Source: Opitutales bacterium (GTDB lineage Bacteria; Verrucomicrobiota; Verrucomicrobiia; Opitutales; PNEW01). Taken from it: a DNA stretch of 64,000 nucleotides. Location: assembly GCA_965197745.1 (NCBI GenBank), contig CBDANS010000005.1:192001-256000 (forward strand). The letters are read 5' to 3'. Shown here in pieces: positions 23,604 to 44,610 of this stretch; within the stretch, counting starts at the first letter, position 1; every line of letters begins with the position of its first letter. The position numbers were made by a program, and so were the translations under genes. A model generated the notes under the pieces. It made no database searches. It was given only the letters and a program-made list of their open reading frames with translations, and was not told where the DNA came from.

Positions 23604-24921
23604 TGGTCGGGTTACACAAACTGGTCCACCGGGAGAGTTAGTCTGGAGAGGTTAATGTTGAAGTTAAGTTGGTAGAGGAAGTCAAGGCTTGGGCGCAATG
23701 AGGGCGTAGCCCGAATGGAGCCCGAGCCTTCGGTATTGAGGTTTTCAGTGAAGTGCCGTGGAGTGATGTTGCCGAGGCTGCGGTGGGGTCGGACATGATT
23801 GTAAAGCCAGCGCCAATCTTCGATGACCACGCGGGCTTCGGTCAAAGTCCATAACTGTTCACGGTTTAAACACTCCTCGCGAAAACGGGCATGGAACGAT
23901 TCAATGTATCCGTTCTGCCAAGGGCTTGCTGGTTCGATATAGAGGGTTTTGATTTTCATCGCAGTTAGCCAGGCTCTCAATTGGCTTTCAATGAATGGCT
24001 TTGCATGTCGTCGCTTCGCTCCTCGGAACGGAACCGTTGTCGCTACGAATATATTTTGGCGGCCCATGCCGGTCGAGCAGTTTTTGCATGATACCGCGCA
24101 CCGTTTCCGCATTGATATGGCGATCAACATGGATCACCCGGCACTCGCGGGTGTACTCATCGAGCACGGTCAGCATTTTTAGACTGCCGCCGCGAACCGT
24201 CTTATCGTGGATAAAATCCCAGGTCCAAACATGGTCGGGATGTTCGGCCTTTGTCGGTAGCCCGGTGCAGACACCCCTGCGCCGGCGTCTTGGCTTGCGT
24301 GGGGGGATCGCCAGACCCAGTTCACGTCGCAGACCTTGCACGAGACGTTTACCCACCTGCCAGCCTTCGTCCTTCAACAGCTTCGTGATCTTGGGATAGC
24401 CCCACCTCGCGTATTGCCGTGATAACCGCCTTACTGCCGCTTTTAGTTTCGTTAGCCAGGCATCCGGATGCTTGGCCCTATACGCATAGGTGGAACGGTG
24501 CAGCCGAAAGTACCGGCACCCCGCTCGCATCGAACACTGGCCCCGAGTCACAAGTCTCTCTGCCACTTGCCGCTTGTGCCCAGGGCTTACAGTTTTTTTT
24601 CGAGGGTCTCCTGCAGGATCTCTATCCCCAGCATCTTGTCCGCCAGCATCCGTTTTAACCGCGCGTTCTCCTTCAAAGAGCTCCTTCATCCGCTTGGCCT
24701 GGTTGACATCAATCATCCCAAACTCACGTTTCCAGCGGTGGAAGGTCTGTTCGCTTATGTTGTTCTCGCGGCATGCTTCCAGGATCGTTTTCCCTTTGTC
24801 CGCCTGGCGCAGCATCCGTATTTTCTCTTCGGTCGTGTATCTTTTGCCTTTCATTGTCTGTGTCCTTTCTAGTTGGACCAGACTAACTTTTCAAGTGGAC
24901 CAGTTTTCGTGGTCACGACCA
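23604..24921 (-). mobile_element. IS3-family element A (defective), with 4-bp target duplication GAAG
   Basis: TG...CA imperfect IRs (TGGTCG..AAACTGGTCCAC); orfA HTH; orfB WTWDF, DEYTRE, SDNG and PWQNGYIESF; frameshift in the orfA zipper and a 32-nt insert in the DDE core. Confidence 0.93.
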
Positions 24922-26500
24922 GAAGGACCAGAGGATGAACTTTTTAATTAAGATGCTGGATTCCTCACACGATTAGAATACGGGGTTTTTACTCCCTCCG
25001 GGAACTAAGTTGCGCAAGGTGCAGACCCGAACGAAGAATCCCGGCTTGAAAGCGGACCCACTCGATGTGGATATCCCCACCTTTATGTGATAGTTATTAA
25101 TAAGACAGAATTAATGTATAATAGTCCTTGCTATTAGCGTTATCATTTATAGCGATTTTCCCGCTAATCCCTTCCGGGGTCCATTGACTTTAGAGGTATT
25201 TCTCATCCCTCTACGGCCATAAGGTTTTTAGCCATTGATGGAAATAAATGAGAAAGAGACTTCGGAATTGCCCATTATGCCTAATCTCAAAGAGAAGCCC
25301 GACCCCAAAGATAAGTGGAGATAACCATGACCTTGGCACATTGTTTTTTCTCATCAATAACCTGTTTAAAGTAGAGCATAAAAAGTCCCCTATTAATATC
25401 TCAATTTTTGCCCATGCATTTACCCTGATATAAAAAGGAAGTGGTCAGTTAAGTAATAAGTTCCTTTTTAGGATAGGGATTGGATGTGAGCACGCTTTAA
25501 AAACAGTATATGGTTATGTAGTAAGAGACTTGGTTAGCATAGATGTTACCCAGTATCACATTTTCATTTTCCACTGGGTTAAAGCGGTAATAATGCCCGT
25601 TTTTCCTTCCCCAGAGAGACCAGAAATTTATGGAAATTTACGAGGGTGCGGGAGGGTCGTGGACGACGGCCTGTTTACAACGTCGTCGAAAGAAGTCCTC
25701 AAAGACATTAACTTTGGAAAAATTTTCCCCAGGGGGAGTATTAATCAAAAAATTGAACACCGTGAATTTTACGAACACGTAATAATAAGTAGGTGTGGGG
25801 CACACCATACTTTTTCTAATTTGGTGTAACGAAGGAACGCCCCGGACTGATATTTGAATTAAAGACACGAGTCAAAAAAGGATTAACAATGAATGACTAA
25901 CCAAAGATTATTGAGGATTGCATCAGGGAGCTCGCGGAGCGTGAGGTTATCGAGGAGACAAAGAACGATGTGACAATGAGGCAAAGCAGGACGGAGCGTT
26001 TGAGGATAGAATCCTCGGGGAGAGTTATTCCTGACCCATGGCGATGCGATAACTCTCACCGAAGTTTTTGGGGTGATTAACCGTTGGGACCCGGTCCCCA
26101 CGGGACAAAATCCCACATGGTAGCAAACTCGGAGAATTCGCCACACACGGCCTTTTGACCTCGAAATTGAACAATATAACGCTTTCTATAAGAAAACGTT
26201 ACGTTGAGGGCATAGATCGACGCTCCAAGGCCTCAATGCGACGCAACCCCATCTCAAAAACAACATCCACCGGGACTAGCTCCAAAAGGATGAAAATAAG
26301 TAGCCTCAAAACAATGATGCATAGGCGTAGAGATCTCCAAAGGGTAAAAGCAAAGAGAGAGCTCGGAGTTAGGATAGGGATACCGGGACATCAAAACCGA
26401 TGCGGCGTGACATCGGAAAATAAAAAAGTGGTGAAGGGGTTTAGAGGATAGTGGAGCATAACAACCTCAAGCAGGTATGATGCAACCCGGGACCCGGAGG

Positions 26501-26558
26501 CCTTTCTAGGTTACCAAGACTAACTTTTCAAGGGGCTCAGTTTCCGTGGTCTCGACCA
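26501..26558 (-). mobile_element. Solo left end of the IS3-A family
   Basis: CCTTTCTAG...AGACTAACTTTTCAAG...CAGTTTCCGTGGTCTCGACCA resembles 24865-24921. Confidence 0.75.
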
Positions 26559-26740
26559 CCCTTGAAGAGTATAAAAATGCTTTCAACCACGTGATCTAAT
26601 TAAAAGAACATTCATATTCCTCGCGTGTCATTTTACTGATCCCTTTTAATAATTCGATTCTTAGTGATTATATGATTGAAATAGACCATTAGATCCATTC
26701 CCTTTTTTATCAGCCATATCAACTGAGACCAGGAGAGTAA

Positions 26741-28969
26741 ATGAACCTAAAAAAGCTTGATACTGTAACCTCGGTATTGCTGACCATTCCCTTATTTATT
26801 CAAGCCGCGCCTCAAGACCAGGAAATATTTCTCGATTTTGAAAATGTCGAAGGAACTGGAGATTTTAGACTCGGCGAACCACCGAATGACATCCAGTTTC
26901 TCGGCTTTACGATAGAGACATTAGAAGATCCGACACTTTTACACTCAGGATCGAAAGCTTTAACTCTTGGGCCCGGCCAGGAAGGAAGAATCATAAGCAA
27001 CCGAGGGATTAATACGATTGAATTTTACGCAGCTGAATCAACAGGCGGTGGCAAAATCGAGATCAGAGGTTTAGTTAATTCAGAAGGAGGAGCAGCCGGT
27101 GGATTACCTGAAGTTATTACCGTAATATCAGAAAATGGTGAGGTTGAAGGACTGCCGGCCAACATCAGCCCTGACGCCAACCCCCCATTGCAAAGCTTTG
27201 TCGCTGACAGTGGCAATTTTCTTGATGGAACTGACCTGGAATTTATTGAAGGGATAAAAGATGTGAAGATCCTCAATGTTTCAGGTAAATTTTCTATCGA
27301 TGATCTTGGCTACACACTCACAGATAAGCCTTCTAATAATAGCGTCTTTACCCGGTTTGAGGAATTTGGAGTCGGTGATGGTTTATCGGGTCCTATTACA
27401 ATGGGAACATCTCCCAATTCAGCCACCTTTGATGGGGGCCAGATTGTAGCCTCTGTTTCGTGTGCATGTGGATTAATTTACTCGCAATCGCAAGGTTATG
27501 CGATTCGAAATGGAGAGGAATTCACGGTCACCTTTGAAACCCCGGCTTATGAAGTAGATTTTTACGCACAGAATGTAGTCAGAGTACAGTTGCAAGATCC
27601 CGATGGCTCATTTGAAGTCTACGATACTAATAATAACCTGATCGGGACCTTCACTAATTTTGAATCGAGTCTTAATCCGCAATTTAAACCCAATTTTTTT
27701 ACCCTCAACGCGGTGGAATTGGGAGCGCCAGGCGGCATTGGCAGGCTTGTTTTTAAGGACGATCCCGATTTGAACGATGATGTATTTAGCCATTCAGGTA
27801 TAGACGACTTTGGCTTTACGCCGATCGGCGCTCTGGGAACTGGCGGGGCCCCTCCGGTAGAAGGCCCGTCCATTACCACCCAGCCGGCGAGCCAGGAAGT
27901 GCCAGCCGGCACCTCGGTTACCGTATCGGTTACCGCCAGTGGCGACGGCCTTACTTACCAGTGGTATCTTGGTAACAGTGGCGACACCTCTAACCCCGTA
28001 GACGGGGCCACCACCAGCACCTTTAACAAAGGAGAAGTAAACGAGAATTCGAGTTGCTGGGTGCGGGTAAGCCAGGTATCGGGAGCTAGTGTGGATAGTG
28101 ATGCCGCCGTCATCACCGTCGCAGCCCCGGCCGTGCCCCTCGTGCTTGACGGAACAGGTGATATCGCCGGGGAGAACATCCAGCATCCTAATGGTAACGT
28201 CTTCGACCAAATCTTACTCACCGGAGAAACCATCCAGTTACAGGCCAGACCGGATCAGATTACTCGCGTCTCCTTTATGGATGAAACCGAGGACATTGTG
28301 CAGGTTGAGTTCTCTGGCGCAGGATCCTTTACCGTAAACCTGGACGCTGCCACCTTCCTGCCACCGGCCATACCCCCGCGCTATAACCAGTCCGTAGAGT
28401 ATGTGACGGGCAAGCCGAGTGTGGTGATCGATGGAGCGGACTCCAGTTCCTTCTTCAGCATCTTCACCGTGGGAAGGATCAACGCGGTGAACCAGGCGCT
28501 ATTCCCCGAGGGACAGATCTATGACGCCCAGGCGGACGTAACCCTGGTGGAAGTGATCAACTCCACGGGCATGGGAGGGATGCAGTTATCGAACACGGTA
28601 TTTAGTGGAAGCACCGGCAAGGTCGGTGTCGATGCGCGCGGGGTACCGATCGGGGTACGTTTAACTGTCGGTGATATCGATGCTGACGGCGATGCGGTAC
28701 CGCACCTCTTGTTTGGAGAGGGATCCTTCACGATACCCGCGGGCAACCCCGGGTTGCGGATCACTGGAGGAGACTTAGCACAGACGAACGGAGCTGCGGT
28801 CGTGGTAGCAGAGAGCGGATCGACGACAACGGGATTTGATACCCTGATTACGCAGAACAACTTCAAATCGGACAATACCCCTCAACCGACACAGAGCATC
28901 AATGCTACCTTTGCTAACGAGAACGGTGATGACATCGCAGTGACGACTGAAGAGGTAACGATTGAGTAA
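26741..28969 (+). CDS. Secreted Ig-domain protein with conserved C-terminal domain; paralog of 12659-14614
   Basis: Signal peptide; PSITTQPASQ...LTYQWY Ig I-set-like module; shared C-terminal ~270 aa. Confidence 0.8.
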   Translation: MNLKKLDTVTSVLLTIPLFIQAAPQDQEIFLDFENVEGTGDFRLGEPPNDIQFLGFTIETLEDPTLLHSGSKALTLGPGQEGRIISNRGINTIEFYAAESTGGGKIEIRGLVNSEGGAAGGLPEVITVISENGEVEGLPANISPDANPPLQSFVADSGNFLDGTDLEFIEGIKDVKILNVSGKFSIDDLGYTLTDKPSNNSVFTRFEEFGVGDGLSGPITMGTSPNSATFDGGQIVASVSCACGLIYSQSQGYAIRNGEEFTVTFETPAYEVDFYAQNVVRVQLQDPDGSFEVYDTNNNLIGTFTNFESSLNPQFKPNFFTLNAVELGAPGGIGRLVFKDDPDLNDDVFSHSGIDDFGFTPIGALGTGGAPPVEGPSITTQPASQEVPAGTSVTVSVTASGDGLTYQWYLGNSGDTSNPVDGATTSTFNKGEVNENSSCWVRVSQVSGASVDSDAAVITVAAPAVPLVLDGTGDIAGENIQHPNGNVFDQILLTGETIQLQARPDQITRVSFMDETEDIVQVEFSGAGSFTVNLDAATFLPPAIPPRYNQSVEYVTGKPSVVIDGADSSSFFSIFTVGRINAVNQALFPEGQIYDAQADVTLVEVINSTGMGGMQLSNTVFSGSTGKVGVDARGVPIGVRLTVGDIDADGDAVPHLLFGEGSFTIPAGNPGLRITGGDLAQTNGAAVVVAESGSTTTGFDTLITQNNFKSDNTPQPTQSINATFANENGDDIAVTTEEVTIE

Positions 28970-29141
28970 CTCTTCAAGGCATATCTAGGGTATACCCCAG
29001 CCCATCAAAACGCTCTCACTACTCACTGTGGCTTGCAAATGGTTAGGGAGAAAAGCCCCTCACACTGCCTTTTGCTTCATCATTTACAAGTTAAGGTAGT
29101 GGCTCCAGACTGAAGGTCCAATTCCCTAACGAGCATTCGCC

Positions 29142-29528
29142 GTGTCCGGCTTAATCCAGCTAAATATTGATGGCATTATGGAAAACATTCTTCACCACCT
29201 TATTATCCTTATCACTATTCTTTTCCTCACAAACCATTCTCTCTTGGCAGACAATAATAATGATAGCGACCAGGGAAAACAAGAACTGCTCATTACTGGA
29301 TCAGAAGCAGACTTGGGACAAGGGACAATTTTAATAACCGGTTTTAATTTCTCCCTGGGTTCAGGTTTTGATGGTGAAGTGCAATTATTTTTTCCACCAG
29401 AGGATGGTGAAGCAATCTTAAAGTATCTCAACGAGAACAACTGTCATAAAGTTCCTTATGAAACTGTATTTTACAGCATTTTAGGAGATGCAATCATCCG
29501 CAGTTTCAGTTATTTACCTCCCTCGTAA
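29142..29528 (+). pseudogene. N-terminal fragment of an exported protein
   Basis: Signal peptide from ATG 29178, then a LLIT...TILITGFNF beta segment, then an apparently unrelated tail. Confidence 0.45.
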
Positions 29529-29554
29529 AAAAATACTTTTGAACAATTTGTCCG

Positions 29555-31252
29555 ATGAATACTGTGCTTTACAATGGAATTCGGTTACCCGAGGAATGGC
29601 CCCCGCGTGACATGAATCCGTCATCCCGCGAGCCAATGCCGGTTCCGTATCTGGACTCTCCGCCATCGGTGATACCGATCGACGTGGGCCGGCAGCTATT
29701 TGTCGATGGTTTCTTGATTGAGAATACTACCTTGAAACGGGTGTTTCACCCGGCGCAAAAATATGAGGAAAATCCAATACTGGTTCCGGTGACCGCGGCT
29801 GAACAGGAGCGCCCCGCGGCCACGGCCTGTCCTTTCGACGACGGAGTCGCCTACGATCCGGTAACCCGGAAGTTCCTGCTCTGGTACCTGGCCTCCTATC
29901 CGGGACACACGGCGGTGGCGTTCAGCGACGACGGTTTGCATTGGGAGCGGCCGGACCTGGATATCCTGCCCGGTACGAATGTGATCCTTCCCAACGACTA
30001 CCCGATGCGTTCCCGGGACAGTTTCTGCCCGCTCCTGGATCTCCATGCGCAGGATCCTACGGAGCGATTCAAGGCCTACCTATACGTGTTTCACGGGAAA
30101 GTCCCCTGGGAGGTAAGTGAGATCCATCAGAAATTTTTTCCTTGGGAGAATCAGAAGGGCAAGAGAACCAGCGAAAACTGGCTCTTGAAATCGGGTGATG
30201 GCGTGCATTGGGAACATGCGGCACAGTTCACGGCTAGAGGCGCCGACGGCACGACCCTCCACTACAATCCCTTCAGACGGAAATGGGTGCTGAACCTCAA
30301 ACGCGACTATGAAGGCAAACGAGGCCGGGCTTATATCGAAAGGGATCAGTTCTGGCAGTTTCAAAGTCTTCGGGAGGCTACGCCGGAAGAGGCCCTGAGT
30401 CAGGTCAGGAGCCTCGATGAGCCCGCTCCGGGGCTGTCCGAAGGGCAGGTGTTCTGGGTCGGGGCCGACAGGCTGGACCTACCGGATCCAGAGTGGGTGG
30501 TCCAGGAGCCGACACAGCTGTACATGCTGGAGGTGGTGCCCTATGAGAGCCTCATACTGGGAATTTTTGCAATCCTCTATGGCCCGCCCAACGACATCTG
30601 CCGAAAAGGGCAGTTCCCAAAGCTGACTCAGATCAAGCTGGGCTACAGCCGGGATGGATTCCACTGGTACCGGCCGGACAGGGAGGTCTTCATCGGTGCC
30701 ACAAAAAAAGACGGGGACTGGGACCGGGCATACCTGAGACCTGCTGCGGGATGCATTATCGCCCGGGATCGGCTGCACTTCTACTATTCAGGATTTTCAG
30801 GCATCGCCCCTTCCGGTGCCCGCGACATATATGCCGGAGGCAGCACCCACGTCGCCTGGACTCGCCGCGACGGCTTTGTCTCCATGGATGCCGGCGATGC
30901 CCCCGGAGATTTGATTACCCGACCACTCACCTTCAAGGGCGGCCATCTTTTTGTCAATGTGGAGGCCCCGGAGGGTGAGCTCCAGGTCGAAGCCCTCGAC
31001 CGGGAAGGCCGGGTTATCGAACCTTATTCAATGGAAAGATGCATTCCGGTACATGGAGACGAAACCTGCGTGCCGATCCGGTGGCGGGGTGCCGCGGACC
31101 TCTCAGCGGCCGGTGGCGGGCCGGCCCGGTTCCGATTCCGGCTGACAAACGGCAGCCTGTATGCCTTCTGGGTCGCCCTCGATCCAGGCGGTAAGAGCCA
31201 CGGCTACGTCGCCTCCGGAGGGCCGGGTTTTTCCGGCCCGAGAGACGTGTAA
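29555..31252 (+). CDS. Beta-propeller glycoside hydrolase (GH32/GH43-like)
   Basis: RQLFVD, repeated SxDGxHW Asp-box-like motifs, R.DGFVSM; visibly higher GC than its flanks. Confidence 0.75.
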   Translation: MNTVLYNGIRLPEEWPPRDMNPSSREPMPVPYLDSPPSVIPIDVGRQLFVDGFLIENTTLKRVFHPAQKYEENPILVPVTAAEQERPAATACPFDDGVAYDPVTRKFLLWYLASYPGHTAVAFSDDGLHWERPDLDILPGTNVILPNDYPMRSRDSFCPLLDLHAQDPTERFKAYLYVFHGKVPWEVSEIHQKFFPWENQKGKRTSENWLLKSGDGVHWEHAAQFTARGADGTTLHYNPFRRKWVLNLKRDYEGKRGRAYIERDQFWQFQSLREATPEEALSQVRSLDEPAPGLSEGQVFWVGADRLDLPDPEWVVQEPTQLYMLEVVPYESLILGIFAILYGPPNDICRKGQFPKLTQIKLGYSRDGFHWYRPDREVFIGATKKDGDWDRAYLRPAAGCIIARDRLHFYYSGFSGIAPSGARDIYAGGSTHVAWTRRDGFVSMDAGDAPGDLITRPLTFKGGHLFVNVEAPEGELQVEALDREGRVIEPYSMERCIPVHGDETCVPIRWRGAADLSAAGGGPARFRFRLTNGSLYAFWVALDPGGKSHGYVASGGPGFSGPRDV

Positions 31253-31258
31253 CGTAAC

Positions 31259-31456
31259 GGCCCGACTGGCGCAACGGGACTAATAGGTCCAACAGGACCT
31301 CAAGGGATTCAGGGTTTAACTGGCCCCATTGGGCCGACAGGGACTGATGGAGTTCCATCGGGATTTATATAATAGGGGAAACACCAGTAGCTCCTAGTGG
31401 ATATAATTTTTTAAGAGAGTTTATATTAGAAGGAACTGACATCTGGTTAACAAAGG
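31259..31456 (+). pseudogene. Collagen-like protein fragment
   Basis: 11 Gly-X-Y triplets ([33 protein letters not shown]), then frameshifted [14 protein letters not shown]...IWLTK cut by IS3-C. Confidence 0.75.
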
Positions 31457-32474
31457 TGGCGTGACTGCCGAGGACTGGACCATTGCCAGTGAGAGTCTTT
31501 CCGTAAATAAGAACGGAAAGACGAATGAAACAGAAAAGACACAACACCGAGCAGATCATAGCAATCCTGCGCGAAGTAGACAGCGGCAGAGGCATCCAGG
31601 AAGTCTGCCGTGAGCACAACATCAGTGCTCAAAGCTACCATCGCTGGCGAAAAAAATATGGGCAGATGGACCTACGCAATGCGAGGCGGCTAAAGGAACT
31701 TGAAGGCGAGAACACGGAACTGAAAAAGATGTTAGCCGAGCAGATGTTAAAGAATCGGGTATTGGAGGAAGTGAATAAAAAAAAATGGTAAGCTCGTCGC
31801 ATAAGAAAGAAGCGGTCAAGCATGTGGTAGGGCAAGGGTTTTGCTCGCTGCGGCGGGCCTGCAGGTATCTTCGGCTCCATCGCTCAACTTATCTCTACGA
31901 GTGCAAGCGAGAATCTTATGGTACTCAGACAATGGTGAGACGAATCATTAGAATTTCAAAGGTACATTCGCGTTATTGCTATCGTCGTATTCGTGCCCTA
32001 ATGGACAAAGAGGGGTGGAAGGTAAGCCGTAAATTCGTGCAAAAAGTGCGAAGAGCTGAAGGGCTTGGAGTGAAACCCTCTCGTCGCCGACAGAGACGAC
32101 GAGGGCACTCTACTGGGCTCCCTACCAAAGCAGTAAAGCCGAACCATGTATGGAGTTGGGATTTTGTTGCCGACCACACCGATCGCGGAGGACAACTGCG
32201 GATGATGACTTTGATCGATGAATATACTCGTAAATGCCTGGCCATAAAGGTATCTCGTTCGCTCAAAAGCGAAAACGTGTTGCAAGTCTTAGTCGAAGCT
32301 ATTGAAGTGTATGGCAGCCCCCCATGCATCCGTTCCGATAAAGATTCGCAGTTCGTAGCACAAAAAGTCAGAGAAGCACTCCTAAATAACCAGATCGATA
32401 TTATCTACATCGACCCTGGCAGCCCTTTGGCAGAATGGCTATGTTGAATCCTTTAAACCATCGACGGCGTGACG
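31457..32474 (+). mobile_element. IS3-family element C, 3'-truncated (orfA 31525-31791; orfB about 31788-32474)
   Basis: IRL-like TGGCGTGACTGCCGAGGACTGGACCA; A9 slippery site at the orfA/orfB junction; WSWDF and DEYTR; frameshift at PW. Confidence 0.88.
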
Positions 32475-32988: not shown

Positions 32989-33012
32989 TTTATAGAACGA
33001 AAGGAAAAATAG

Positions 33013-34484: not shown

Positions 34485-34518
34485 GGGTGAAATAATGATA
34501 ACATAACAAAGGAAGAAG

Positions 34519-35235: not shown

Positions 35236-36250
35236 CAACATCATCGAGGCCATTGAGGACGAGAACATTTTTAAGCCCTTCCTGGGCGATTTGGATTCAT
35301 GGCAGGGTTGGTTGACCGCCCTGCAGGTGCTTTACGGATAGGATATGAAGTCAACGAAGGACAAAGCCAATCTCATCTGCCTTTGCACCGGCTGGGAGCG
35401 AAAGCCCCAGTTTGAACCTGGAGGTTTTAAAACAGCTTTGTTTCTGATCGGTAGAAGAGGAGGGAAGTCACGTGTCATTTCCATTGTTGGAGCATTCGAG
35501 GCCATCTTGGCAGAGCATGACAAAAAATTGGCCAAAGGTGAGAAAGGGATTTTACCGATCATAGCCCCGACCAAGGCACAGGCCGGAATCATCAAGAATT
35601 ACCTGCGCTCGATCTTTGAAACAGACATCCTCAAGAATGAAATTGCGGAGGAGACAAGAGACGGATTTGACCTGATAAATAATATCTCTGTGCGGGTCAT
35701 GGCCGGCGATTTCAGAACCGTTAGGGGCTTCACTTTGGTATGCTCAATAATTGATGAGGCTTGTTTTTTTGGTGTGGAGGAGGGAGCCAAGATCAGATCC
35801 GATACCGAGTTGATCCGAGCAGTCCGGCCGGGGCTCTCCACGCTCGGAGGACGCATGATCGTAATCTCCAGTCCATACGCTGAAAAGGGATGGTGCTATG
35901 AGCAGTACTGTTCGCATTTCGCAAATAAACCAAGTGGTGTTTTGGTTTGGAATGCTGCCTCAAGGACAATGAACCCCACGTTGCTCCAATCGGTGGTTGA
36001 TGATGCTTTGAGAGAAGACAAGAACTCAGCCAGAAGTGAGTACTTGGGCGAATTCAGGGATGATATTTCGGACAACCTGCGCCGCGCCGCGGTCGTGACC
36101 TGCGTTATCGCGGGAGAAACGACCGGGATAGAGTCCCAGAAAGGAAGCTCAGTTTGTAGCATAAACCCCTCCCTTTCACATCACACGCATCAAACAAACA
36201 CGCCTCACAATGCACATTACGCAAATGAGCCGAGTCTACAATCCAACTGA
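35225..36250 (+). pseudogene. Terminase large subunit ATPase domain, internal TAG (35339-35341), nuclease domain missing
   Basis: Walker A GRRGGKS, IAPTKAQA, Walker B IIDE, ISSP, and N-terminal frame from ATG 35225. Confidence 0.8.
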
Positions 36251-36285
36251 TAAGGTAAATCCCTCTCAATTCTGTTGTCAAAAGT

Positions 36286-36804
36286 ATGAATACATCCGTT
36301 TTAGCTCAGCTCCACCGTAGGGGCGTTCACCTTTTGAGGATAAACTCTGCCCCGTTCCTGCCTTTCAAGGGAGACTCGAAATACCTTCCAAGTTTGATCC
36401 AACTGCGCCAACACGTCAGGAAGGGAGGCCTGATCGGCATGAGCCCTGGCCCCGATAGCATAGCCGTGATGAAAGTCTCTGGCAAAGAGTCGAGTGTGGT
36501 TTTCGATGCCCTGGTGGGATACGATCCGCTTTGCATCTCTCGGAGCGCAGGCAACGGGTTCTTGTTCTGGTTTGGTGATCATGTGGGGGAACTCAAGGGA
36601 TTGTTAAAGTGGGAGTTCATGGGGGCCAGGGGTAGCGTTGTTTGCGGCAAACGATGGTTCATACTGGCCGACTTGGGCAAGGCTTATGTCGAGTCGATCC
36701 AAAAGGGCCGCGTTAGTGACGATCACCCTTTACCCCTGGAATTGCTAAGAGGAGGATCGCAAGCGCACTCGGCCGCAAGCGGGGATGCGAAACTCTTTGA
36801 CTGA
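36286..36804 (+). CDS. Hypothetical protein, possibly a divergent prim-pol-like fold
   Basis: GLIGMSPG..SIAV and SRSAGNGFLFWF loosely resemble prim-pol motifs but lack the DxD and His residues. Confidence 0.35.
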   Translation: MNTSVLAQLHRRGVHLLRINSAPFLPFKGDSKYLPSLIQLRQHVRKGGLIGMSPGPDSIAVMKVSGKESSVVFDALVGYDPLCISRSAGNGFLFWFGDHVGELKGLLKWEFMGARGSVVCGKRWFILADLGKAYVESIQKGRVSDDHPLPLELLRGGSQAHSAASGDAKLFD

Positions 36805-37211
36805 AAGGTGTTCCTGGTCCTGTGCAACTGCGATAAAACCCCGTTGTGATAGGGCTGGAACACAGGGAACTTGGCCCCAATATTGGATGCGGTCCTTAAA
36901 CACGACGTGGCCGCGGGCTTTACAGGGTGGATCCCGTGGATAAGCAATCCTTAAAGAGTACCTGAACGAATTCATGTAATATCATTGGCATTGATTCAAG
37001 TTCAACACATTCTCCCGCGTAAAAATTGCTTCGTGAATGGTGGTACATACATGGATTCGAGAAAAGGACTTGAGTGTTATCTCTATTTCGAGTACAGATA
37101 CGTGCTGGATTCCAGCATGTATTCCAACATGGCCAAAGCTTGGGCACATCCGCGCTCGGTGTGACAAAAAAGTAAGAACTCCTTAACGACACCGAAAAGA
37201 AAGACAACACA

Positions 37212-37924
37212 ATGAGTGAATTCCTTAGTCCTGCAGTTCAGGCGCAGAACATTATTCGATACGTTTGTGATAAAATTATTGAATCAAGAAATGTTATTCC
37301 TGAACTCTCTGGCGACTTGCACAGTGAGATCGGTGCACCAAGCAGTGATCTTGCCTTTAAGCTGATAGTGGAATTGGTGGAAAAGGGAGTTCTCAATGAT
37401 GGTACTAACGGAAAAATTCACCCAGCAGCTTCTGCTCTCAGGAACGTTAACCTAACTCTTGAAGGATGGGAAAAGTACGAAGCGGAGAAACGTGGCAGGT
37501 TCGATGGAAACTACGGTTTCATTGCTATGAAGTTTGGCGATGACGATCTCGACGACCTTGTTCAGAACGTTGTGAAACCTACATTGAAAGAAGGTATCGG
37601 CTACGAACTCTATAATATGAAGGATGTCTCGCGGGCGGGGATTATAGATGACACATTATGCGCGTTCAAATCAGAGACTCTGCGTTCGTCATTGCCGAAC
37701 TAACGCACGACAATCCTGGCGCCTATTGGGAAGCAGGATACGCGGAAGGTTTAGGTAAGCCCGTAATCTATATCTGCAAAAAAGAAAAATTCGACGAGAT
37801 ATCAACCCACTTCGACACAAATCACTGTACAACGGTTTTATGGTCCAGAGACAACGATGAGGGCTTCCAGCAAGAATTGATTGCCACACTTCGCCGCTCC
37901 CTCGATCTCAGATCAGAAGTGTGA
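37212..37924 (+). pseudogene. wHTH plus nucleoside-2-deoxyribosyltransferase/TIR-like protein, frameshifted near 37655
   Basis: FIAMKFG...AGIID joins MRVQIRDSAFVIAELTHDNPGAYWEAGYAEGLGKPVI...HFDTNH. Confidence 0.75.
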
Positions 37925-37973
37925 GACAGTCGCTCACCTGTAGAGGCACATGGATCACAAAGCTTTACATTAC

Positions 37974-39304
37974 TGATCGGACCACGTTTTTCGTACCAAT
38001 TTTTAAGTGAGAGAGTTACCGAGTGTTGATGGTTTTAGGATTGATGTATATGAGAAATCTTGGCGAAGTGAGGGCGTAGCCCTAACGCGGCCAGGATCTG
38101 AAAGGAATCTGACAAACTCTTGCGGGCTTTTAAAGCCTAAACGACTGTAAGGATGTTCATGATTAATAGGTATGACGCCATTGTTCGATTACCACTTGAG
38201 CTTCAGCCACGCTGAGCAACACTTCGCGATTCAAACACTCATCGCGTAAGCGGTTGTGAAACGACTCAATGAAACCATTTGTTATTCTCGCTTTGGCTCG
38301 TTGAGGTGTCGCTTCGCTCGGTAGCCAGGGACTGCCCGGATCGATATAGATCGCCTTGATGTTTTTGTCGGACAACCACTGCTGCACCTGATGAGCAATG
38401 AATGGCTTCGCATGTCGTCGCTTCGCTCCTCGGGACACTGCCGTTATCACTACGGATATAGCTGGGAGCTCCCTCCTCTTCAATGGCCTCGCTAAGCACA
38501 GAGAGGACATCGGATGAGGTGAGTTGACGAGCTACCCGGATACTCAGATATTTACGCGTATATTCATCGATCAGAGTCATCATCTTTAATGGACCGCCAT
38601 TGTCTGTGCGGTCATGGACAAAGTCCCAAGACCAGACGTGATTGCGCCCCTGTAGAGACCCCTTGACGGTGTCTACGCTTTTTCGGTGGCTTTATCTGCA
38701 GCCCTTCTGAACGTCGTACCGCCTGGACAAACTTCCTGCTTGTTGCCCAGCCTTCCTTTACCAGCAAGGCACGGATGCGCCGGTAACCGTAGCAGGGATG
38801 TTCCCAGGACAGGGTTACAATCCGCTCGGTCAACCTCTGAGCTTTCTTACTGGCTTGCTTGGGCCGGTAGCTGTACGTTGACCAACTGAGGCTGAGATAA
38901 GCACAAGCCCTCCGCAACGAGCACAGCCCTCTGTCAGCCGCATCTTTTACTACTCGCTTCTTCTGCTTTGGGCTCACCACTTTTTTGATAGCGTTTCCTC
39001 CATCACCTGATTCTTGAGCATTTGATCAGCGAGCAGTTTCTTCAACTCGGTGTTTTCTTTTTCCAGCTCTTTAAATCGCTTCGCATCGGCCAGTTCCAAG
39101 TTGCCATACTTTTTACGCCAGCGATAGAAGGTCTGTTCACTTAGGTTGTTGCTGCGGCAGATTTCCTCTACCGTTTTACCGGTGTCGGCCTGCCGAAGTA
39201 TTCCTATAATCTGTTCTGTTGTGTATCTTTTTCTTTTCATTGAGGTTATCTGTTTATCCCGATAACCTCTCTCTGTAAATGATACGATTTTTGGGGGCAC
39301 ATCA
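37974..39304 (-). mobile_element. IS3-family element D (defective; orfA about 38974-39240)
   Basis: TGAT...TCGTA imperfect IRs; A6G slippery site; orfB broken by a deletion and by 32-nt and 43-nt inserts. Confidence 0.88.
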
Positions 39305-39412
39305 GTGACGTCTGATTACTGATAACTGTAATTCAATTGTTTTTCTTTGACTCATAACACTTAACTCTCAACTTTGCTTACCCTTTTCCGTTAGGTTTCA
39401 TAGTCAGACATT

Positions 39413-40504
39413 TTGAAATATAATCCTTATTCTTATTTTACTTTTGGGTTTTTAACTTTGCTGCTTTCTGTACTGCATACTGGAGGTGAGGATATAAAAA
39501 AATCTTCAGCTAAAACGGTCGACCATCCGCAAAACATTCAAAGCCCTGCAGGTATGTTATGGATTCCAGGTGGCGCTTTTATGATGGGAGATGACACAGG
39601 GAATAAGGTAATGCCGCATGGCGGCTATAACAATGAGAGCCCTGTTCATGAGGTGAAGCTCGATGGATTCTGGATAGATATGACTCCCGTGATAAACGAA
39701 CAATACGCGAAGTTTGTGGAAGAGACAGGTTACATTACCTATTCAGAACAAAAGCCCAAAGCGGAAGATTGGCCGGGTGCACTACCTGAGATGCTTATTC
39801 CCGCATCGATTGTTTTTAAACAACCCACCGGCAAAGTTGACATGAGAAATTTATATAACTGGTGGGAATATAAACCAGGTGCAAATTGGCGACATCCCGA
39901 AGGACTGGAAAGCAGTATCGAAGAGAGAATGAATCATCCCGTGGTACATGTGACCTATGATGACGCAATGGCTTATTGCAAATGGGCAGGTAAGGAGATG
40001 CCTACCGAAGCACAATGGGAGTACGCAGCACGTGGTCGCTTGGATAATAAGGTATACACATGGGGAGATCAACCCGAGCATCTTGAGAATAAAGTGATGA
40101 ATTATTGGGAAGGGAATTTCCCTTACGAAAACAGTGGCAACGATGGCCATAGTATTACATCACCTGTTGGCAGTTATCCACCCAACGGATACGGTCTTTA
40201 TGACATGGCCGGCAATGTCTGGGAATGGGTATCAGATTGGTATCATCCCCGGTATTATGAAGTCAGCTCTAAAGAAAACCCTACAGGAGTTATTAAAGAA
40301 CATAGCCTTGATCCTAATGAACCCGGTATTCCAAAACGCATTGTTAAAGGCGGATCATTCTTATGCAGCGAAAATTATTGTACCGGATTCAGGCCGAGTG
40401 CCCGTATGGCTACAGACCCACGATCCAGTTCTAATCACACGGGTTTCCGTTGTGTCGTGACGCAGAAGATGCGGGGAAATATAAATTTCCCAAAATACAA
40501 ATGA
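39413..40504 (+). CDS. Formylglycine-generating enzyme (SUMF1/FGE) family protein
   Basis: PTEAQWEYAAR, DMAGNVWEW and KGGSFLCSENYC..FRPSAR (Cys pair present). Confidence 0.92.
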   Translation: MKYNPYSYFTFGFLTLLLSVLHTGGEDIKKSSAKTVDHPQNIQSPAGMLWIPGGAFMMGDDTGNKVMPHGGYNNESPVHEVKLDGFWIDMTPVINEQYAKFVEETGYITYSEQKPKAEDWPGALPEMLIPASIVFKQPTGKVDMRNLYNWWEYKPGANWRHPEGLESSIEERMNHPVVHVTYDDAMAYCKWAGKEMPTEAQWEYAARGRLDNKVYTWGDQPEHLENKVMNYWEGNFPYENSGNDGHSITSPVGSYPPNGYGLYDMAGNVWEWVSDWYHPRYYEVSSKENPTGVIKEHSLDPNEPGIPKRIVKGGSFLCSENYCTGFRPSARMATDPRSSSNHTGFRCVVTQKMRGNINFPKYK

Positions 40505-40660
40505 CAAAATACAAATAAATTCTAATGATTGAGAAACCAAAACGACAAAAAGGATAAAAGAATATCTGATTCCTTATTATTTAATACCGTTTGGTAATTT
40601 AGATTTTGTAATTTAAATATTATTTGAGATTTGTGATTTGTCTTTTTGTCATTTGAATTT
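40483..40660. repeat. AT-rich palindromic short-unit repeat element, copy 1
   Basis: ACAAA-rich arm followed by TTTGT-rich arm; perfect IR CAAATGACAAAA (40498-40509) / TTTTGTCATTTG (40644-40655). Confidence 0.7.
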
Positions 40661-40704
40661 CATGATTTTTCTTTTGACAATTTACCGATCAATCCGGTCC
40701 CACC

Positions 40705-41391
40705 ATGAGCCAATTTATCGACATACGACACGACGAAGAGCGTAATTTTCTTCGTGCCCTTAGATCTTACGACGAAGAACTGGTTAGCGCCGGTCGGGTT
40801 TTCATTGAGACGCTTCACGCAGCTGCCGAGCTTAAGGATTTAGGAAAATGTGTGACAGTATTCGGATCTGCCCGTTTTTCAGACGATCATCCTAGCTATG
40901 TACTGGCTCGCGAGATGGGAAGGCTGTTGGCGATCGATGGCTATACCGTGGTGACCGGAGGAGGTCCAGGAATCATGGAAGCAGCCAATCGCGGAGCTAA
41001 AGATGAGGGGGGCAGATCAATCGGTTGCAATATCAGTCTACCCAGGGAGCAAAAACCAAACCCCTATGTGGATCAGTTTGTTGAATTTGAACATTTCTTT
41101 GTACGCAAGATGATGCTGGTGAAACTCTCCTCCGCTTTTGTCGTTCTGCCTGGTGGATTTGGTACGCTTGATGAAGTTTTCGAGACGCTTACACTCATAC
41201 AGAACGGGAAGATCGAATCCTTTCCTCTCGTCGTCCTGGGTGGCAAGTTCTGGGACGCAATGAGCGAATTTATCACGAATACAATGATTCGTGAAGGAAC
41301 GATCGGTGAAGAAGATCTCAATCTTATTTCCTTCGCAGAGACTCCGCAGGAAGCGGTGCCATTCATCAAAGGCGATAAGAAATCAGAGTAA
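40705..41391 (+). CDS. LOG-family (TIGR00730-like) Rossmann-fold protein
   Basis: FGSAR, TGGGPGIMEAAN and PGGFGTLDE motifs. Confidence 0.92.
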   Translation: MSQFIDIRHDEERNFLRALRSYDEELVSAGRVFIETLHAAAELKDLGKCVTVFGSARFSDDHPSYVLAREMGRLLAIDGYTVVTGGGPGIMEAANRGAKDEGGRSIGCNISLPREQKPNPYVDQFVEFEHFFVRKMMLVKLSSAFVVLPGGFGTLDEVFETLTLIQNGKIESFPLVVLGGKFWDAMSEFITNTMIREGTIGEEDLNLISFAETPQEAVPFIKGDKKSE

Positions 41392-41399
41392 GGTGAAAT

Positions 41400-41556
41400 G
41401 AATTTAAGCACAAAATAACAAGTTACAAACCACAAATAAATTCCAGTAGCCAAAAAACCAATTTACACAAAATAATAATCGAAAACAGTTTGGTTATTTA
41501 GAAATTGTAGTTTGGCTATTATTCGAAATTTGTATTTTGATAAATTGAGATTTATT
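41400..41556. repeat. AT-rich palindromic short-unit repeat element, copy 2
   Basis: Shares ACAAATAAATTC and GTTTGGT with copy 1; internal IR TAGCCAAA/TTTGGCTA. Confidence 0.65.
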
Positions 41557-41566
41557 TAATAATATT

Positions 41567-42220
41567 TTGATTAATCATTCAGAAATTCATAAAAACTCGG
41601 CAAGTCGGATCATTGCGATTACGCTAATCTTTTCGATTGGATATACGATACTTCGCTACCACATCGTCGGTCCGGTACCGTGGAAAGATTTCCCCTTTTT
41701 TATTTTAAATAAAGGGGTCTCACTAAGTGCATTTATATTGCTGACTTTTAATTTCAGTTTGGGACCGTTGAAAAACCTGGGATTAAAAGTTCCTGAAAGC
41801 TGGCTCAATGCCCGCAATGCTTTAGGTATGAGCGGATTCTTGCTAGTGCTCATCCATGCATTAATGAGCTTCATGCTGTTTAATCCAAAAATATACGGAA
41901 AGTTTTTTGATCAAGACGGTTCGCTTACACTATTGGCAGGCATAAGTATGCTCGGTGGTGTTTTAGCCTTTGTCATTCTCTGGGGTTACAACCTGAGTTT
42001 TCTAACCCATCTGAGAGAAGACAAGGCATTCATCCAATTTATTACCACACGGAAATTCCTCCTAGTAGCGATGATACTCGGTGCAGTTCACTTGTTTTTT
42101 ATGGGCTACAAAGGTTGGCTCAACCCATCCAGCTGGCATGGCGGGCTGCCACCGATCAGTCTGGTGGCGTTTGCATTTTTTGTGAGCGGGTACATGATTA
42201 ATTTGTTTGGGAGAAAGTAA
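41567..42220 (+). CDS. Multi-TM membrane protein, ferric-reductase-like TM domain
   Basis: About 6 TM helices; RNALG, and His residues in LIH and AVH positioned like heme ligands. Confidence 0.6.
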   Translation: MINHSEIHKNSASRIIAITLIFSIGYTILRYHIVGPVPWKDFPFFILNKGVSLSAFILLTFNFSLGPLKNLGLKVPESWLNARNALGMSGFLLVLIHALMSFMLFNPKIYGKFFDQDGSLTLLAGISMLGGVLAFVILWGYNLSFLTHLREDKAFIQFITTRKFLLVAMILGAVHLFFMGYKGWLNPSSWHGGLPPISLVAFAFFVSGYMINLFGRK

Positions 42221-42351
42221 ATTCTGAAGGACGATTCATCTCATTCGCTGAGCTATAAATAAATATTAAAATATTCCGTTTATAGTACCAAAGATGAAAT
42301 AAGAAATAGTCGAGTGTCGAGGGGCAGGTGTCGAGGGAGGAGTGAAGATAT

Positions 42352-42459
42352 ATGAAAAGTGGATTAAAAGTTTTTGGAGCTTATCATAAATCTATGGAGT
42401 TATTTGATCTTGTTGCACAAGATATGAAAACACTGAAGCCAGAATATTCTTTAACCCGT
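42352..42459 (+). pseudogene. Four-helix-bundle protein N-terminus truncated by IS3-B
   Basis: GGAG SD; MKSGLKVFGAYHKSMELFDLVAQDMKTLKPEYSLTR ends exactly at the IS end; preceded by GTCGAG short repeats. Confidence 0.65.
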
Positions 42460-43753
42460 TGGTCGGGTTACACAAACTGGACCACTGTGAGAGTTAGTCT
42501 GGAGAGGTTAATGTTGAAGTTAAGTTGGTAGAGGGAGTCAAGACTTGGGCGCAATGAGGGCGTAGCCCGAATGGAGCCCGAGCCTTGGGTATTGATGTTT
42601 TCAGCGAAACGTTGTGGAGTAATATTGCCGAGGCTGCGGTGGGGTCGAACATGATTGTAAAGCCAGCGCCAATCTTCGATCACCACACGGGCTTCGGTCA
42701 AAGTCCACAGCTGTTCACGATTTAGACACTCCTCGCGAAAACGTGCATGCAACGATTCGATGTATCCGTTCTGCCAAGGGCTTCCTGGTTCGCTATAGAG
42801 GGTATTGATTTTCATCGCAGTTAGCCAGGCTCTCAATTCCTTTTCAATGAATGGCTTCGCATGTCGTCGCTTCGCTCCTCGGAACGGAACCGTTGTCACT
42901 GCGAATATATTGTGGCGACCCATGACGGGCAAGCAGTTTTTGCATTGATATGGCGATCCACATGGATCACTCGACACTCGCGGGTGCACTCATCGAGCAC
43001 GGTCAACATTTTTAAACTGCCACCGCGGACTGTTTTGTCGTGGATAAAATCCCAAGTCCAAACATGGCCGGGATGTTCGGCCTTTGTCGGCAGCCCGGTG
43101 GAGACACCCCTACGCCGACGCCTTGACTTGCGTGGAGGAATCGCCAAGCCCAGTTCACGTCGCAGACGTTGCACGAGCCGTTTACCCACCTGCCAGCCTT
43201 CGTCCTTCAACAGCTTCGTGATCTTCGGATAGCCCCACCTCGCGTATTACCGTGATAACCGCCTTACTGCCACCTTCAGTTTCGTTAGCCAAGCATCCGG
43301 ATGTTTGAGCCTCATAGGTATAAGTGCAACGGTCCATATGAAAGTATCGGCACGCTGCACACATCGAACACTGGCCCCGAGCCACAAGTCTTTCTGCCAC
43401 TTGCTGCCTGTACTCAGGGCTTACAGTTTTTTTTCAAGCGTCTCCTGCAGGATCTCTATCCCCAGCAGCTTGTCCGCCAGCATCCGCTTTAACTGCGCGT
43501 TCTCCTTCAAAGAGTTCCTTCATCCGCTTGGCCTGGTTGACATCAATCATCCCAAACCACTATTCCAACGGTGGAAGGTCTGTTCGCCTAGTTGTTTTCG
43601 CGGCACACTTCCAGGATCGTTTTCCCTTTGTCTGCCTGCTGCAGCATCCGTATCTCCTCTTCGGTTGTGTAGCTTTTACCTTTCATTGTCTGTGTCCATT
43701 CTAGGTGTCCCAGACTAACTTTTCAAGTGGACCAGTTTTCGTGGTCACGACCA
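42460..43753 (-). mobile_element. IS3-family element B (defective sister of element A, no target duplication)
   Basis: Same IRs as 23604-24921; colinear; same 32-nt insert; additional indels. Confidence 0.92.
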
Positions 43754-43845
43754 ATATGTAAGTTTAAAATCTGTCATTCCTAGGCACTAAGGTTATTTTT
43801 TTGAGTTACTATTGTATTCCATCGCACTTGGATATTGGCGAATCT

Positions 43846-43865
43846 ATTGTAATAATTATTGTAAT
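43846..43865. promoter_or_regulatory. Putative integrase arm-type sites (right): 2x ATTGTAAT at 12-bp period
   Basis: 43846-43853 and 43858-43865, about 55 bp inside the att repeat. Confidence 0.6.
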
Positions 43866-43924
43866 TTAGGCCTATTACAGAATTAAAACATTCATAAAAT
43901 TCCTCTTAATAAAGACTTATAAAA

Positions 43925-44010
43925 TGGTGGTGGGAACAGGATTCGAACCTGTGAAGCGAAACCGCAGCAGATTTACAGTCTGCCCCCTTTGGCCGCTTGG
44001 GTATCCCACC
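43925..44010 (-). tRNA. tRNA-Tyr(GUA)
   Basis: GGTGGGA acceptor stem, GCAGA-CTGTAAA-TCTGC anticodon arm, long variable arm, GGTTCGAATCC, CCA. Confidence 0.97.
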
Positions 44011-44220
44011 ATCCGGAAATAAGTAGTGAAAAATGTATGCCTATGACAACTTTGCCAAGTATAATTTTGAATATTTTCTATAAATTACGAATGAATGATA
44101 GATACCGAAAGAGAATGCTCCACGGTTAAATTTAACTCGCTTTGAGGATAACAATTAGACATTTTTCCTAGGATTCTATTAATGGTCTGAACTAAAATAA
44201 AAACATTGATAGTTCTAATG

Positions 44221-44297
44221 GCCGGCTTAGCTCAGTTCGGTAGAGCATCCGCCTTGTAAGCGGACGGTCGCCAGTTCGAATCTGGCAGCCGGCTCCA
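44221..44297 (+). tRNA. tRNA-Thr(UGU)
   Basis: GCCGGCT acceptor stem, TCCGC-CTTGTAA-GCGGA anticodon arm, GTTCGAATC, CCA. Confidence 0.97.
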
Positions 44298-44386
44298 TTT
44301 TATATACGAATCACTTTCATTGACCCTTAAAAAGAAGATTGAAAATTATTTGTCCCTCGCCTTCTATGAAGCCCCTTTAATTATTC

Positions 44387-44460
44387 TGCCTGGTAGTGTA
44401 ATGGTAGCACGACAGATTCTGGTTCTGTTTGTCTAGGTTCGAATCCTAGCCGGGCAGCCA
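44387..44460 (+). tRNA. tRNA-Gln(CUG)
   Basis: TGCCTGG acceptor stem, ACAGA-TTCTGGT-TCTGT anticodon arm, GGTTCGAATCC, CCA. Confidence 0.96.
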
Positions 44461-44461
44461 T

Positions 44462-44610
44462 ACGACGCGCTCACTGCGTTCTCTTGCTCATAACAGGTTA
44501 TTTAAAGTAGTAAGGAGATGAGAATAGGCTAGGATGAGAATCGTAGATTCGTTCCGAGGAGCGCTATAGCGACGACACAAGCGAAGCGTCCATCCTAGCC
44601 GGGCAGCCAT
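44462..44610 (+). repeat. tRNA-linked repeat ending in a 19-bp copy of the tRNA-Gln 3' end (rtT-like)
   Basis: ATCCTAGCCGGGCAGCCAT at 44443-44461 and 44592-44610; GGCTAGGAT (44527-44535) is complementary to the copy; internal mini-hairpins. Confidence 0.8.

Follow-up and report, generated by a model that had tools for sequence, protein, structure and literature searches.

The window analysed here is a stretch of 64,000 nucleotides from the genome of a marine Opitutales bacterium (G000:C5:192001-256000, that is, contig C5 of assembly G000, which has 4.45 Mb in 7 contigs). It contains members of a family of very short inserts that interrupt the transposase genes of insertion sequences (IS) of the IS3 family and a partial copy of the 3' end of a tRNA gene. 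The inserts are polymorphic, being present or absent in otherwise near-identical IS copies; they obey one junction rule, share a modular architecture in which the stem of a small hairpin covaries, and occur in variants that are inherited along IS lineages. We consider it likely that they are miniature, non-autonomous mobile DNA elements of the repetitive extragenic palindrome (REP) kind, inserted at the level of DNA. A previous sequence-only reading of the window had proposed a family of tiny non-autonomous inserts, and in this respect it is supported.

Filled and empty copies of the same insertion sequence

The 32-nt member that we call ins1 is found in three IS3 copies of the window, which belong to subfamilies A and B and to a D family (Table 1). 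It is read at all three positions where the sequence-only reading had placed it, with a C as second base in the D copy and, in the A copy, an A in the part reading ATGCAAAGCC. A 20-nt core of ins1 has 3 exact matches in the window (24007-24026, 38414-38433 and 42863-42882, all on the minus strand), compared with 0 matches in 100 shuffles. Translation of the IS3-type orfA and orfB shows that SDNGS abuts the 5' side of the insert and that the remainder of orfB then lies in the +1 frame, and an intact IS3 copy elsewhere in the genome reads SDNGSEF...PWQNGYIESF, which confirms the proposed net frame change of +31 nt after SDNGS.

Genome-wide, ins1 occurs 73 times, in every case (73/73) preceded by SDNGS-like codons of IS3 transposase genes. 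There are 40 full-length A-family IS3 copies, with ins1 present in 35 and absent from 5. Four of the empty copies (1,286-1,287 bp) are by alignment otherwise the same as the A copy of the window, except for a 2-3-nt orfA variant in two of them, and have G-AGTTT in place of the G-(32 nt)-ATTC of filled copies; among the filled copies, 8 others are 99.5-99.9% identical to that of the window. Empty alleles were also found in other public samples, as judged for one stretch and from Logan contigs rather than raw reads. The insert-less joins across ins1 have either AG (reverse complement CT) or AGTTT (reverse complement AAACT) between the two sides: a contig of run X2, with a depth of 280, has an empty D-type site with AG, the AGTTT form is seen in contigs of X1 and X18, and X18 also has an AG-TTC form. 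Because these letters are missing from filled DNA, the insert-less forms are empty DNA alleles and not spliced RNA. Thus uninterrupted alleles, which the sequence-only reading had asked for, exist both in this genome and in contigs of other samples.

The insert ins1 is therefore a recent DNA-level insertion rather than a product of RNA processing, because near-identical IS3 copies and contigs from other samples do not have it. Removal at the RNA level, as by an RNA intron, was rejected since the insert-less contigs carry letters not found in filled copies and since contigs from RNA libraries keep the inserts (records 9, 10 and 13); this argument is weak in that it uses contigs only, and DNA may be present in such libraries, so that they say little about expression. 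No Rfam family matched the insert or 20 related loci. The 5' flanks differ by lineage (GGTTCCG, GGCAGTG and GGATCGG), with five different bases before the shared junction G, and the difference between A/B and D extends right to the 5' junction (TTCCG versus CAGTG), so that a single converted event does not account for them.

Two further polymorphisms were observed in these copies. One A-family IS3 without ins1 (C7:1466033-1467343) has TAG in place of the GAG codon exactly at the insertion site (GGT TCC TAG TTC). Otherwise identical IS3 copies also differ by a micro-polymorphism in orfA, CTC-GA-GAAGG versus CTC-TTT-GAAGG (+1 nt), which distinguishes G000:C4:136859-138145 and C7:1901266-1902552 from C7:406740-408025 and C7:1352654-1353939 and lies at about position 24676 (minus strand) in the A copy of the window. 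The TTT form joins the N-terminus of orfA to orfB in a single 415-aa frame without the usual -1 frameshift, and all four combinations of the orfA variant with presence or absence of ins1 are found.

Architecture, hairpin and target site

The family is described by a modular pattern, T-W-CCGAG followed by 3-22 variable bases and CGACAY, which has 259 matches in the genome against 6 for the reversed control. The element begins with T, its two leading bases being TA or TT in this genome, and has a tail that ends in C and is either short (CTTCC) or formed by a second hairpin of the GCGAAGC type, the motif treated as 'mini-hairpin DNA' in a review (PMC13037366). Members outside IS are mostly 28-40 nt long and end in CTTCCA. 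The short form is present with 86 distinct flank pairs, 37 of which lie within one large intergenic repeat that has a related core, and in both orientations (59 forward, 51 reverse). The size range of 32-43 nt first suggested for the family is real but too narrow, since members span 25-43 nt here, longer forms occur elsewhere, and about 86 distinct sites lie outside IS.

A perfect end stem of at least 3 bp is formed by 26 of the 84 distinct variable segments, where 1.3 would be expected. In the 9-nt segments, 60 of 78 cells are Watson-Crick pairs, compared with 45.4 in shuffles (maximum 54 in 1,000 shuffles); their loops are mostly GAA or AAA and often of the GNA type, and the stems change by compensatory substitutions. 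Nearest-neighbour folding of the insert with its flanks was no better than for shuffles (z = -0.61 as RNA and -1.41 as DNA). The mini-hairpin of the sequence-only reading is thus upheld because of the covariation across family members, but not by folding energy.

One rule holds wherever the empty allele is known: G or C followed by A-A or A-G becomes G or C, the element and a single A, with no target duplication and with one base lost. Beyond this minimal S^AR target, 49 distinct sites outside the large repeat have G (55%) or C (33%) at position -1, mostly C or A at -2 and mostly C or T at -3, while on the 3' side the terminal CA of the element is followed by A/T, A/T, T and C. The preferred type of site, as derived from these alignments, is YCG^AAWTC (ATCG^AA-AATC or TTCG^AA-TCC), which resembles a tRNA T loop. 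The recognition of G^AAT-like sites that had been proposed therefore stands as a T-loop-like preference, but the minimal target is only S^AR with loss of a base. Near-identical flanks, a lack of empty alleles and a lack of a target consensus had been named as signs against a mobile element; the data contradict all three.

Placement of the target within a hairpin loop was considered for the short family and rejected, as an enclosing stem of at least 5 bp was found at 2 of 86 sites, compared with 4.8 in flank-swapped controls. The large intergenic repeat, which reads ...GTCATTGC-GAGGAGC-NNN-GCGACG-NN-GCAATCCAGG..., is found at many sites in G000 (e.g., C6:129610, C7:1573998 and C6:916427), often as inverted pairs and often with a member of the short family nested after GGC.

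Several inserts per IS3 gene

At least five different family members are found within IS3 genes (ins1 to ins5, Table 1). In an alignment of 13 D-family copies, ins1 to ins4 occur in eight combinations of presence and absence; for example, the D1, D2 and C6:662530 copies are empty at the ins2 site (GGC-AA-AACGG). The junctions in this family are GATG-AA/[E]A, GTG-AG or AA/[E]A, GGC-AA/[E]A and GATG-AG/[E]A, where [E] is the element. The sequence-only reading had included ins2 as an in-frame relative of ins1, and it is indeed found in the D copy of the window with its frame free of stops.

The inserts have been carried along as their hosts multiplied. An A variant of ins1 is present in 12 copies, every one of them in the A/A2 IS lineage, and masking of the inserts restores a frame of 354-425 aa in 28 of the 35 filled A-family copies. 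Within each of D1 (9 copies) and D2 (14 copies) the sequences are near-identical, and ins1 and ins3 are present in all copies; by reading of the alignment, without a frame check, D2 has an additional in-frame TAG, and it still amounts to 14 near-identical copies. Since broken IS3 copies have multiplied, defective copies must have been mobilised, for which transposase provided in trans is the simplest source; the genome holds two fully intact A-type IS3 copies. About 3% of the genome is IS DNA, which provides neutral ground, so no anti-IS3 function needs to be invoked. The inserts are best read as inactivating, hitch-hiking passengers and not as a weapon against IS3. For the earlier suggestion that the element is directed at IS3 transposases we see no sign, the IS copies being neutral ground on which passengers are amplified.

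Chimeric IS3 copies, in which an upstream part from one family and a downstream part from another meet exactly at ins1, were found at G001:C1:2763901-2766920 (locus L009) and G000:C7:1673306-1674699. Such sequences suggest that IS families which have diverged from one another may recombine at the shared ins1.

Recombination also forms the basis of an alternative explanation, in which one or a few ancient insertions reached other IS3 copies through gene conversion or recombination, with no site-specific insertion. IS copies do recombine at the insert, the G001 copy being A-type upstream and D-type downstream with the join at ins1 and the copy at C7:1674699 having a B-type patch straight after ins1, and single gains combined with recombination could yield the combinatorial pattern of the D family. 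However, the orfB products of the A and D families share only about 40% amino-acid identity, and their flanks differ up to the junction, so that a conversion tract would need to stop precisely at the first base of the element. The same junction rule also holds at unrelated sites (ins2 to ins5, tRNA-like ends and heptamer repeats), and related elements lie in tRNA-like T loops of other phyla. We consider this explanation improbable.

Copies linked to tRNA genes

The real tRNA-Gln gene of the window and the tRNA-Asn genes (C6:355300-355900 and in two sister genomes) are all intact. It is the partial or pseudo copies of tRNA 3' parts, 90-400 nt downstream, that hold a 40-nt element after the TTCG of the T loop. 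The tRNA-linked element is followed by precisely the 18 nt at the 3' end of the tRNA, so that A58 or A59 is missing. As the sequence-only reading had it, the 40-nt relative in the window splits a T-loop-like GATTCG/ATCC, upstream of the exact copy of the 18-nt 3' end of tRNA-Gln. A hairpin in this unit holds the element in its loop and has a 5' arm complementary to the tRNA 3' part, and analogous units are found behind tRNA-Asn at G000:C6:355300-355900 and in the sister genomes G001 and G002. The tRNA-linked repeat gives a sub-threshold, RtT-like Rfam match (23.7 bits, E = 0.28, for a gathering score of 45).

That the tRNA marks the boundary of a genomic island was considered and rejected: the six open reading frames (ORFs) scanned downstream of the tRNA-Gln repeat have ordinary domains and include 0 integrases. 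In G002 (L041, G002:C1:397661-400729), an intact tRNA-Asn gene is followed by two copies in tandem with a spacing of about 397 nt, each with a near full-length tRNA-Asn pseudo-copy in which the anticodon arm is replaced and the 40-nt element lies in the T loop.

Related sequences in other genomes and in integrons

The short-family pattern has 110 matches in this genome, where the control has 2; the two sister genomes have 140 and 157, with 1 and 0 for the control. In each of 400 other Verrucomicrobiota genomes it has at most 21 matches, and mostly 0-4, which is about the level of the reversed control. The 21-nt core of the long forms is more widely distributed, with at least 63 public loci; outside Opitutales, Coraliomargarita and Puniceicoccaceae, the matches listed come from Woeseiaceae and other Proteobacteria, Spirochaetes, Sulfurovum, Parvularculaceae and a metagenome-assembled genome of Acidimicrobiia. 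In 6 of 49 loci inspected among the matches listed, the core lies between GTTCG and ATC(C/T) of a sequence resembling a tRNA 3' half. Two Treponemataceae genomes with true integrons have the core at the apex of attC sites, where up to 21 bases are identical: in the first, all 17 of 17 matches are on one strand and 16 are beside an integron integrase, and a CGAG-hairpin-CGAC apex is present in 14 of 18 attC-like sites inspected; in the second, all 6 of 6 matches are on one strand, 22-68 kb from an integron integrase. Both genomes have large chromosomal integron arrays with integrases over the cut-off (G478:C1:872124-1051800 and G479:C1:477453-546359, reached via L078 and L105).

That a 21-nt module is common to several phyla and to attC apexes hints at common structure-specific machinery. 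In the broadest version of this idea, the elements would be substrates of a cross-phylum machinery that places a 21-nt G-A-rich mini-hairpin into TTCG^AA-type, T-loop-like sites in place of one base, and the same module in the spirochaete attC apex would link REP-like elements and cassette sites. We regard this version as doubtful; if true, it would imply a recurrent knock-out of IS3/rve transposases at the DNG(S/P)^EF boundary.

A related explanation is that the inserts are attC-type fragments or scars, left when a tyrosine recombinase similar to that of integrons acted on folded single strands. Like attC sites, they have a hairpin as a folded single strand, a core of 19-21 nt coincides with the attC apex in two genomes with bona fide integron integrases, and a related core occurs in the large intergenic repeat of this genome. 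Unlike attC sites, their ends have no R''/R' core sites (RYYYAAC...GTTRRRY), the junction as read from the sequence is not G^TT...G^TT, and both strands are used. Furthermore, no integron integrase over the cut-off was found in G000, G001 or G002, where the best TIGR02249 score was 80-84 bits compared with the required 265. IntI was found in the three genomes that come next in element content, but also in 119 of 401 genomes of the phylum and in 25 of 35 in their family, and its presence in element-bearing genomes therefore carries no weight. A link to integron integrases was rejected on both grounds, and scars of this kind are a quite unlikely origin.

Mode of insertion and search for the enzyme

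For miniature elements of the REP kind, the mobile module would consist of the two variable bases, CCGAG, the small hairpin, CGACAY and the tail ending in C. A machinery acting in trans would paste it directly 3' of G or C and 5' of A-R, with one base lost and no duplication. Copies would survive only where they are harmless, namely in IS3 copies, pseudo-tRNA ends and other repeats. In IS3 they break orfB (by net +31 or +35, or by an in-frame TGA), and the broken IS copies, probably mobilised by transposase in trans, would then amplify the insert as a passenger. Movement may proceed through a single-stranded hairpin intermediate, and the agent may be a structure-specific enzyme such as a Y1 HUH transposase similar to REP-associated tyrosine transposases (RAYT) or another recombinase.

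Several observations weigh against this account. First, no enzyme is tied to the elements, in keeping with the earlier statement that the responsible enzyme could not be identified in the window; none could be assigned after searches of the genome. A single Y1 HUH gene is present (G000:C6:163149-163742) and its best family match is the model for REP-associated tyrosine transposases, but it scores 66.6 bits, compared with an NCBIfam cut-off of 80, with 198 aa it is truncated relative to homologues such as the full-length orthologue of 347 aa in G001, and no element lies within its 3.3-kb locus. Of 101 Opitutales genomes, 32 have Y1 homologues, with no relation to the number of elements. Among six homologue loci in this genome, G001, G002 and G015, an element was found at one only, 1.1 kb off. 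In G040, there are element matches at 2 of 5 Y1 loci, and the match examined is part of an unrelated insertion with inverted repeats. A RAYT link was rejected because the gene is not flanked by elements here or in the closest relatives and because its occurrence is independent of element load. Clustering of ORFs within 1.5 kb of 89 elements revealed no small nuclease or recombinase as a recurrent neighbour.

Second, we know of no HUH, integron or DDE insertion that has the loss of one target base as its signature. Third, no bias of orientation relative to GC skew was found (30/27 and 14/18), unlike for IS200/IS605 elements, from which the family also differs in that there is no fixed tetra- or pentanucleotide, only the G/C at -1 being near-fixed, and in the lost target base. 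Fourth, gain of the elements, as opposed to their precise loss, is inferred solely from parsimony. Fifth, one insert type lies at the DNG(S/P)^EF codon boundary in A/B, in D and in a Cerasicoccus IS lineage, a recurrence that is more site-specific than the S^AR rule predicts. The sequence-only reading had pointed to such recurrence at the homologous base of diverged IS3 copies, and it holds for at least three diverged IS lineages, a point that counts in favour of that reading. Finally, all 34 of 34 D-family copies in the assembly have at least one insert and none is insert-free, so that the assembly shows no ready source of transposase for the D1 and D2 bursts.

Two observations were made alongside the enzyme search. 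At one Y1 transposase gene in G040, comparison of L031 (2836-3034) with L030 (G040:C1) revealed an element of about 190 nt with 14-nt terminal inverted repeats, which has a member of the short family directly inside one terminal repeat. The largest cluster of neighbouring genes (26 loci, including G000:C6:1108730-1110118) is a family of secreted paralogues of about 460 aa located beside intergenic mini-elements.

The lack of an insert-free D-family copy would be explained if the ribosome bypassed the inserts or shifted frame over them, so that filled IS3 copies still made transposase. The precedents are T4 gene 60 and its relatives and the mitochondrial 'byps' (bioRxiv 10.1101/2022.08.31.505936), which, going by the accounts compared, are likewise short, mobile, hairpin-bearing inserts in coding sequence. 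Such tolerated recoding would agree with the large number of filled copies that are mostly intact after masking, with a +1 frame that reads open across ins1, and with the inserts kept in RNA-library contigs, where DNA may be present. However, it would require a different event for each insert: a +1 shift for ins1 (net +31), read-through of TGA within the +42 of ins3, and a shift over +35 nt for ins4. By reading of the junctions, there are no matching take-off and landing codons that would restore the frame at ins1 or ins3, and D2 copies have multiplied despite the in-frame TAG seen in the alignment. The same elements also occur outside coding sequence, in repeats and pseudo-tRNA ends, for which decoding does not matter. 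We thus consider recoding very unlikely.

Least credible is an origin from a small structured RNA that was joined to transcripts or tRNA and then reverse-transcribed into DNA. In its favour, sense orientation is seen in 4 of 5 IS3 inserts and in all tRNA-like cases, CA or CCA stands at the end of the elements, the tRNA-like junction is at A58/A59 with the exact 3'-terminal 18 nt after the element, and the two bases before CCGAG vary by lineage like non-templated additions. Against it, a search of this genome, which is 92% complete, revealed no RVT_1 reverse transcriptase, ins5 is antisense, and the short family is equally common on both strands in intergenic repeats.

Relation to known mobile elements

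REP elements are the closest known kind. They are described as tagged stem-loops of 20-40 bp that also occur inside genes, intragenic GTAG REPs being most numerous in Opitutus terrae (Di Nocera et al., 2013, PMC3733652); Table 1 of the same paper gives stems of 5-13 bp, and GTMG is listed there among the degenerate tags. Going by that description, the present family is similar in consisting of dispersed stem-loops of 25-43 nt, which agrees in length, with unpaired conserved feet and covarying stems, and in being non-autonomous, present in high copy number, lineage-specific in load and sometimes intragenic. O. terrae, compared by description only, belongs to the same order. The complementary strand of nearly all members reads GTCG directly 5' of the hairpin, which would fit the degenerate tag GTMG.

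There are also differences. Relative to the REPs so described, the stems are very short (mostly 3 bp, with G-A-rich feet), the elements are mostly single units and not inverted pairs, members lie inside transposase genes and pseudo-tRNA T loops, and the 21-nt core is identical across phyla and present in attC apexes. The loss of one target base is not described in the REP accounts compared, for which no dedicated search was made. A REPIN consists of two inverted REPs that form a long hairpin, and a RAYT is a Y1 HUH transposase (Bertels and Rainey, 2011, PMC3337134); those inserts whose empty sites are known are single units, whereas inverted pairs are seen for the large intergenic repeat, which has a related core. 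The RAYT-like gene lacks the flanking elements of a REPtron.

The small dispersed repeats (SDRs) of heterocystous cyanobacteria provide another parallel. According to papers (PMC4390886, PMC13756078) that cite the original work of Elhai et al. (2008, Genome Res 18:1484), SDR5 is a module of 21 nt that enters the HIP1 octamer between its third and fourth base. From what these papers report, SDRs are also tiny modules at one exact position of a short target, but they differ in sequence, phylum and target. An exact-sequence literature search with core strings of the element matched none of the papers in the library searched, and topic searches gave only analogies. The Rickettsia palindromic elements are palindromic selfish DNA in protein-coding genes; they are longer and typically in frame in functional genes. 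The present family is likewise palindromic selfish DNA inside genes, but most of its inserts break the frame and sit in dispensable DNA.

We know of no settled account of how REP-type mini-elements enter new sites. Here, otherwise identical IS copies resolve filled and empty sites to a single base, A-R after G/C becoming the element and A, and the junction rule together with the T-loop-like preference sets constraints that any proposed enzyme must reproduce. Tiny inserts can also silence most copies of an insertion sequence while spreading with it. For annotation, the family accounts for dozens of 'frameshifted' IS3 transposase genes and for odd repeats at tRNA ends in Opitutales.

Features of the window

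The positions of the IS3 copies, inserts and tRNA-linked features are collected in Table 1, together with the site and frame of the inserts found in IS3 copies elsewhere. Element C, which the sequence-only reading had described as free of the insert, is an uninterrupted gene of the IS3 family.

Table 1. IS3-family copies, mini-elements and tRNA-linked features; positions are those of the window, and inserts without a position lie in IS3 copies elsewhere
Feature	Position	Strand	Remarks
IS3-family element, subfamily A, 1,318 bp	23604..24921	-	same as G000:C5:215604-216921; orfA with +1-nt micro-variant; orfB split by ins1
ins1, 32-nt mini-element, variant ...ATGCAAAGCC	23997..24028	-	SDNGS^EF, between SDNGS and (E)F, net +31 nt; by sequence reading
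Element C, uninterrupted IS3-family (rve) gene	31683..32426	+	C5:223683-224426; homologous site without insert, reads ...GAT TCG CAG TTC...
IS3-family element, D family, degenerate	38000..39297	-	ends approximate; with ins1 and ins2; empty at ins3 and ins4 sites
ins2, 43-nt family member	38281..38323	-	PW^QNG motif, net +42, in frame, stop-free; by sequence reading and alignment
ins1 of D-family copy	38404..38435	-	second base C; by sequence reading and alignment
IS3-family element, subfamily B, degenerate	42460..43753	-	several frame breaks; by translation
ins1 of B copy	42853..42884	-	by sequence reading
tRNA-Gln(CTG) gene, intact	44387..44460	+	
tRNA-linked hairpin	44527..44609	+	9-nt arm complementary to tRNA-Gln 3' part, T-loop-like loop, exact tRNA-Gln A59-A76 (last 18 nt)
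40-nt family member	44552..44591	+	after TTCG of T-loop-like sequence; A58 or A59 absent; by sequence reading
ins3, 43 nt			LID^EYTR, +42 but in-frame TGA
ins4, 36 nt			RLRD^ECLN, +35
ins5, 25 nt			antisense at A-rich frameshift site of another IS3 subfamily

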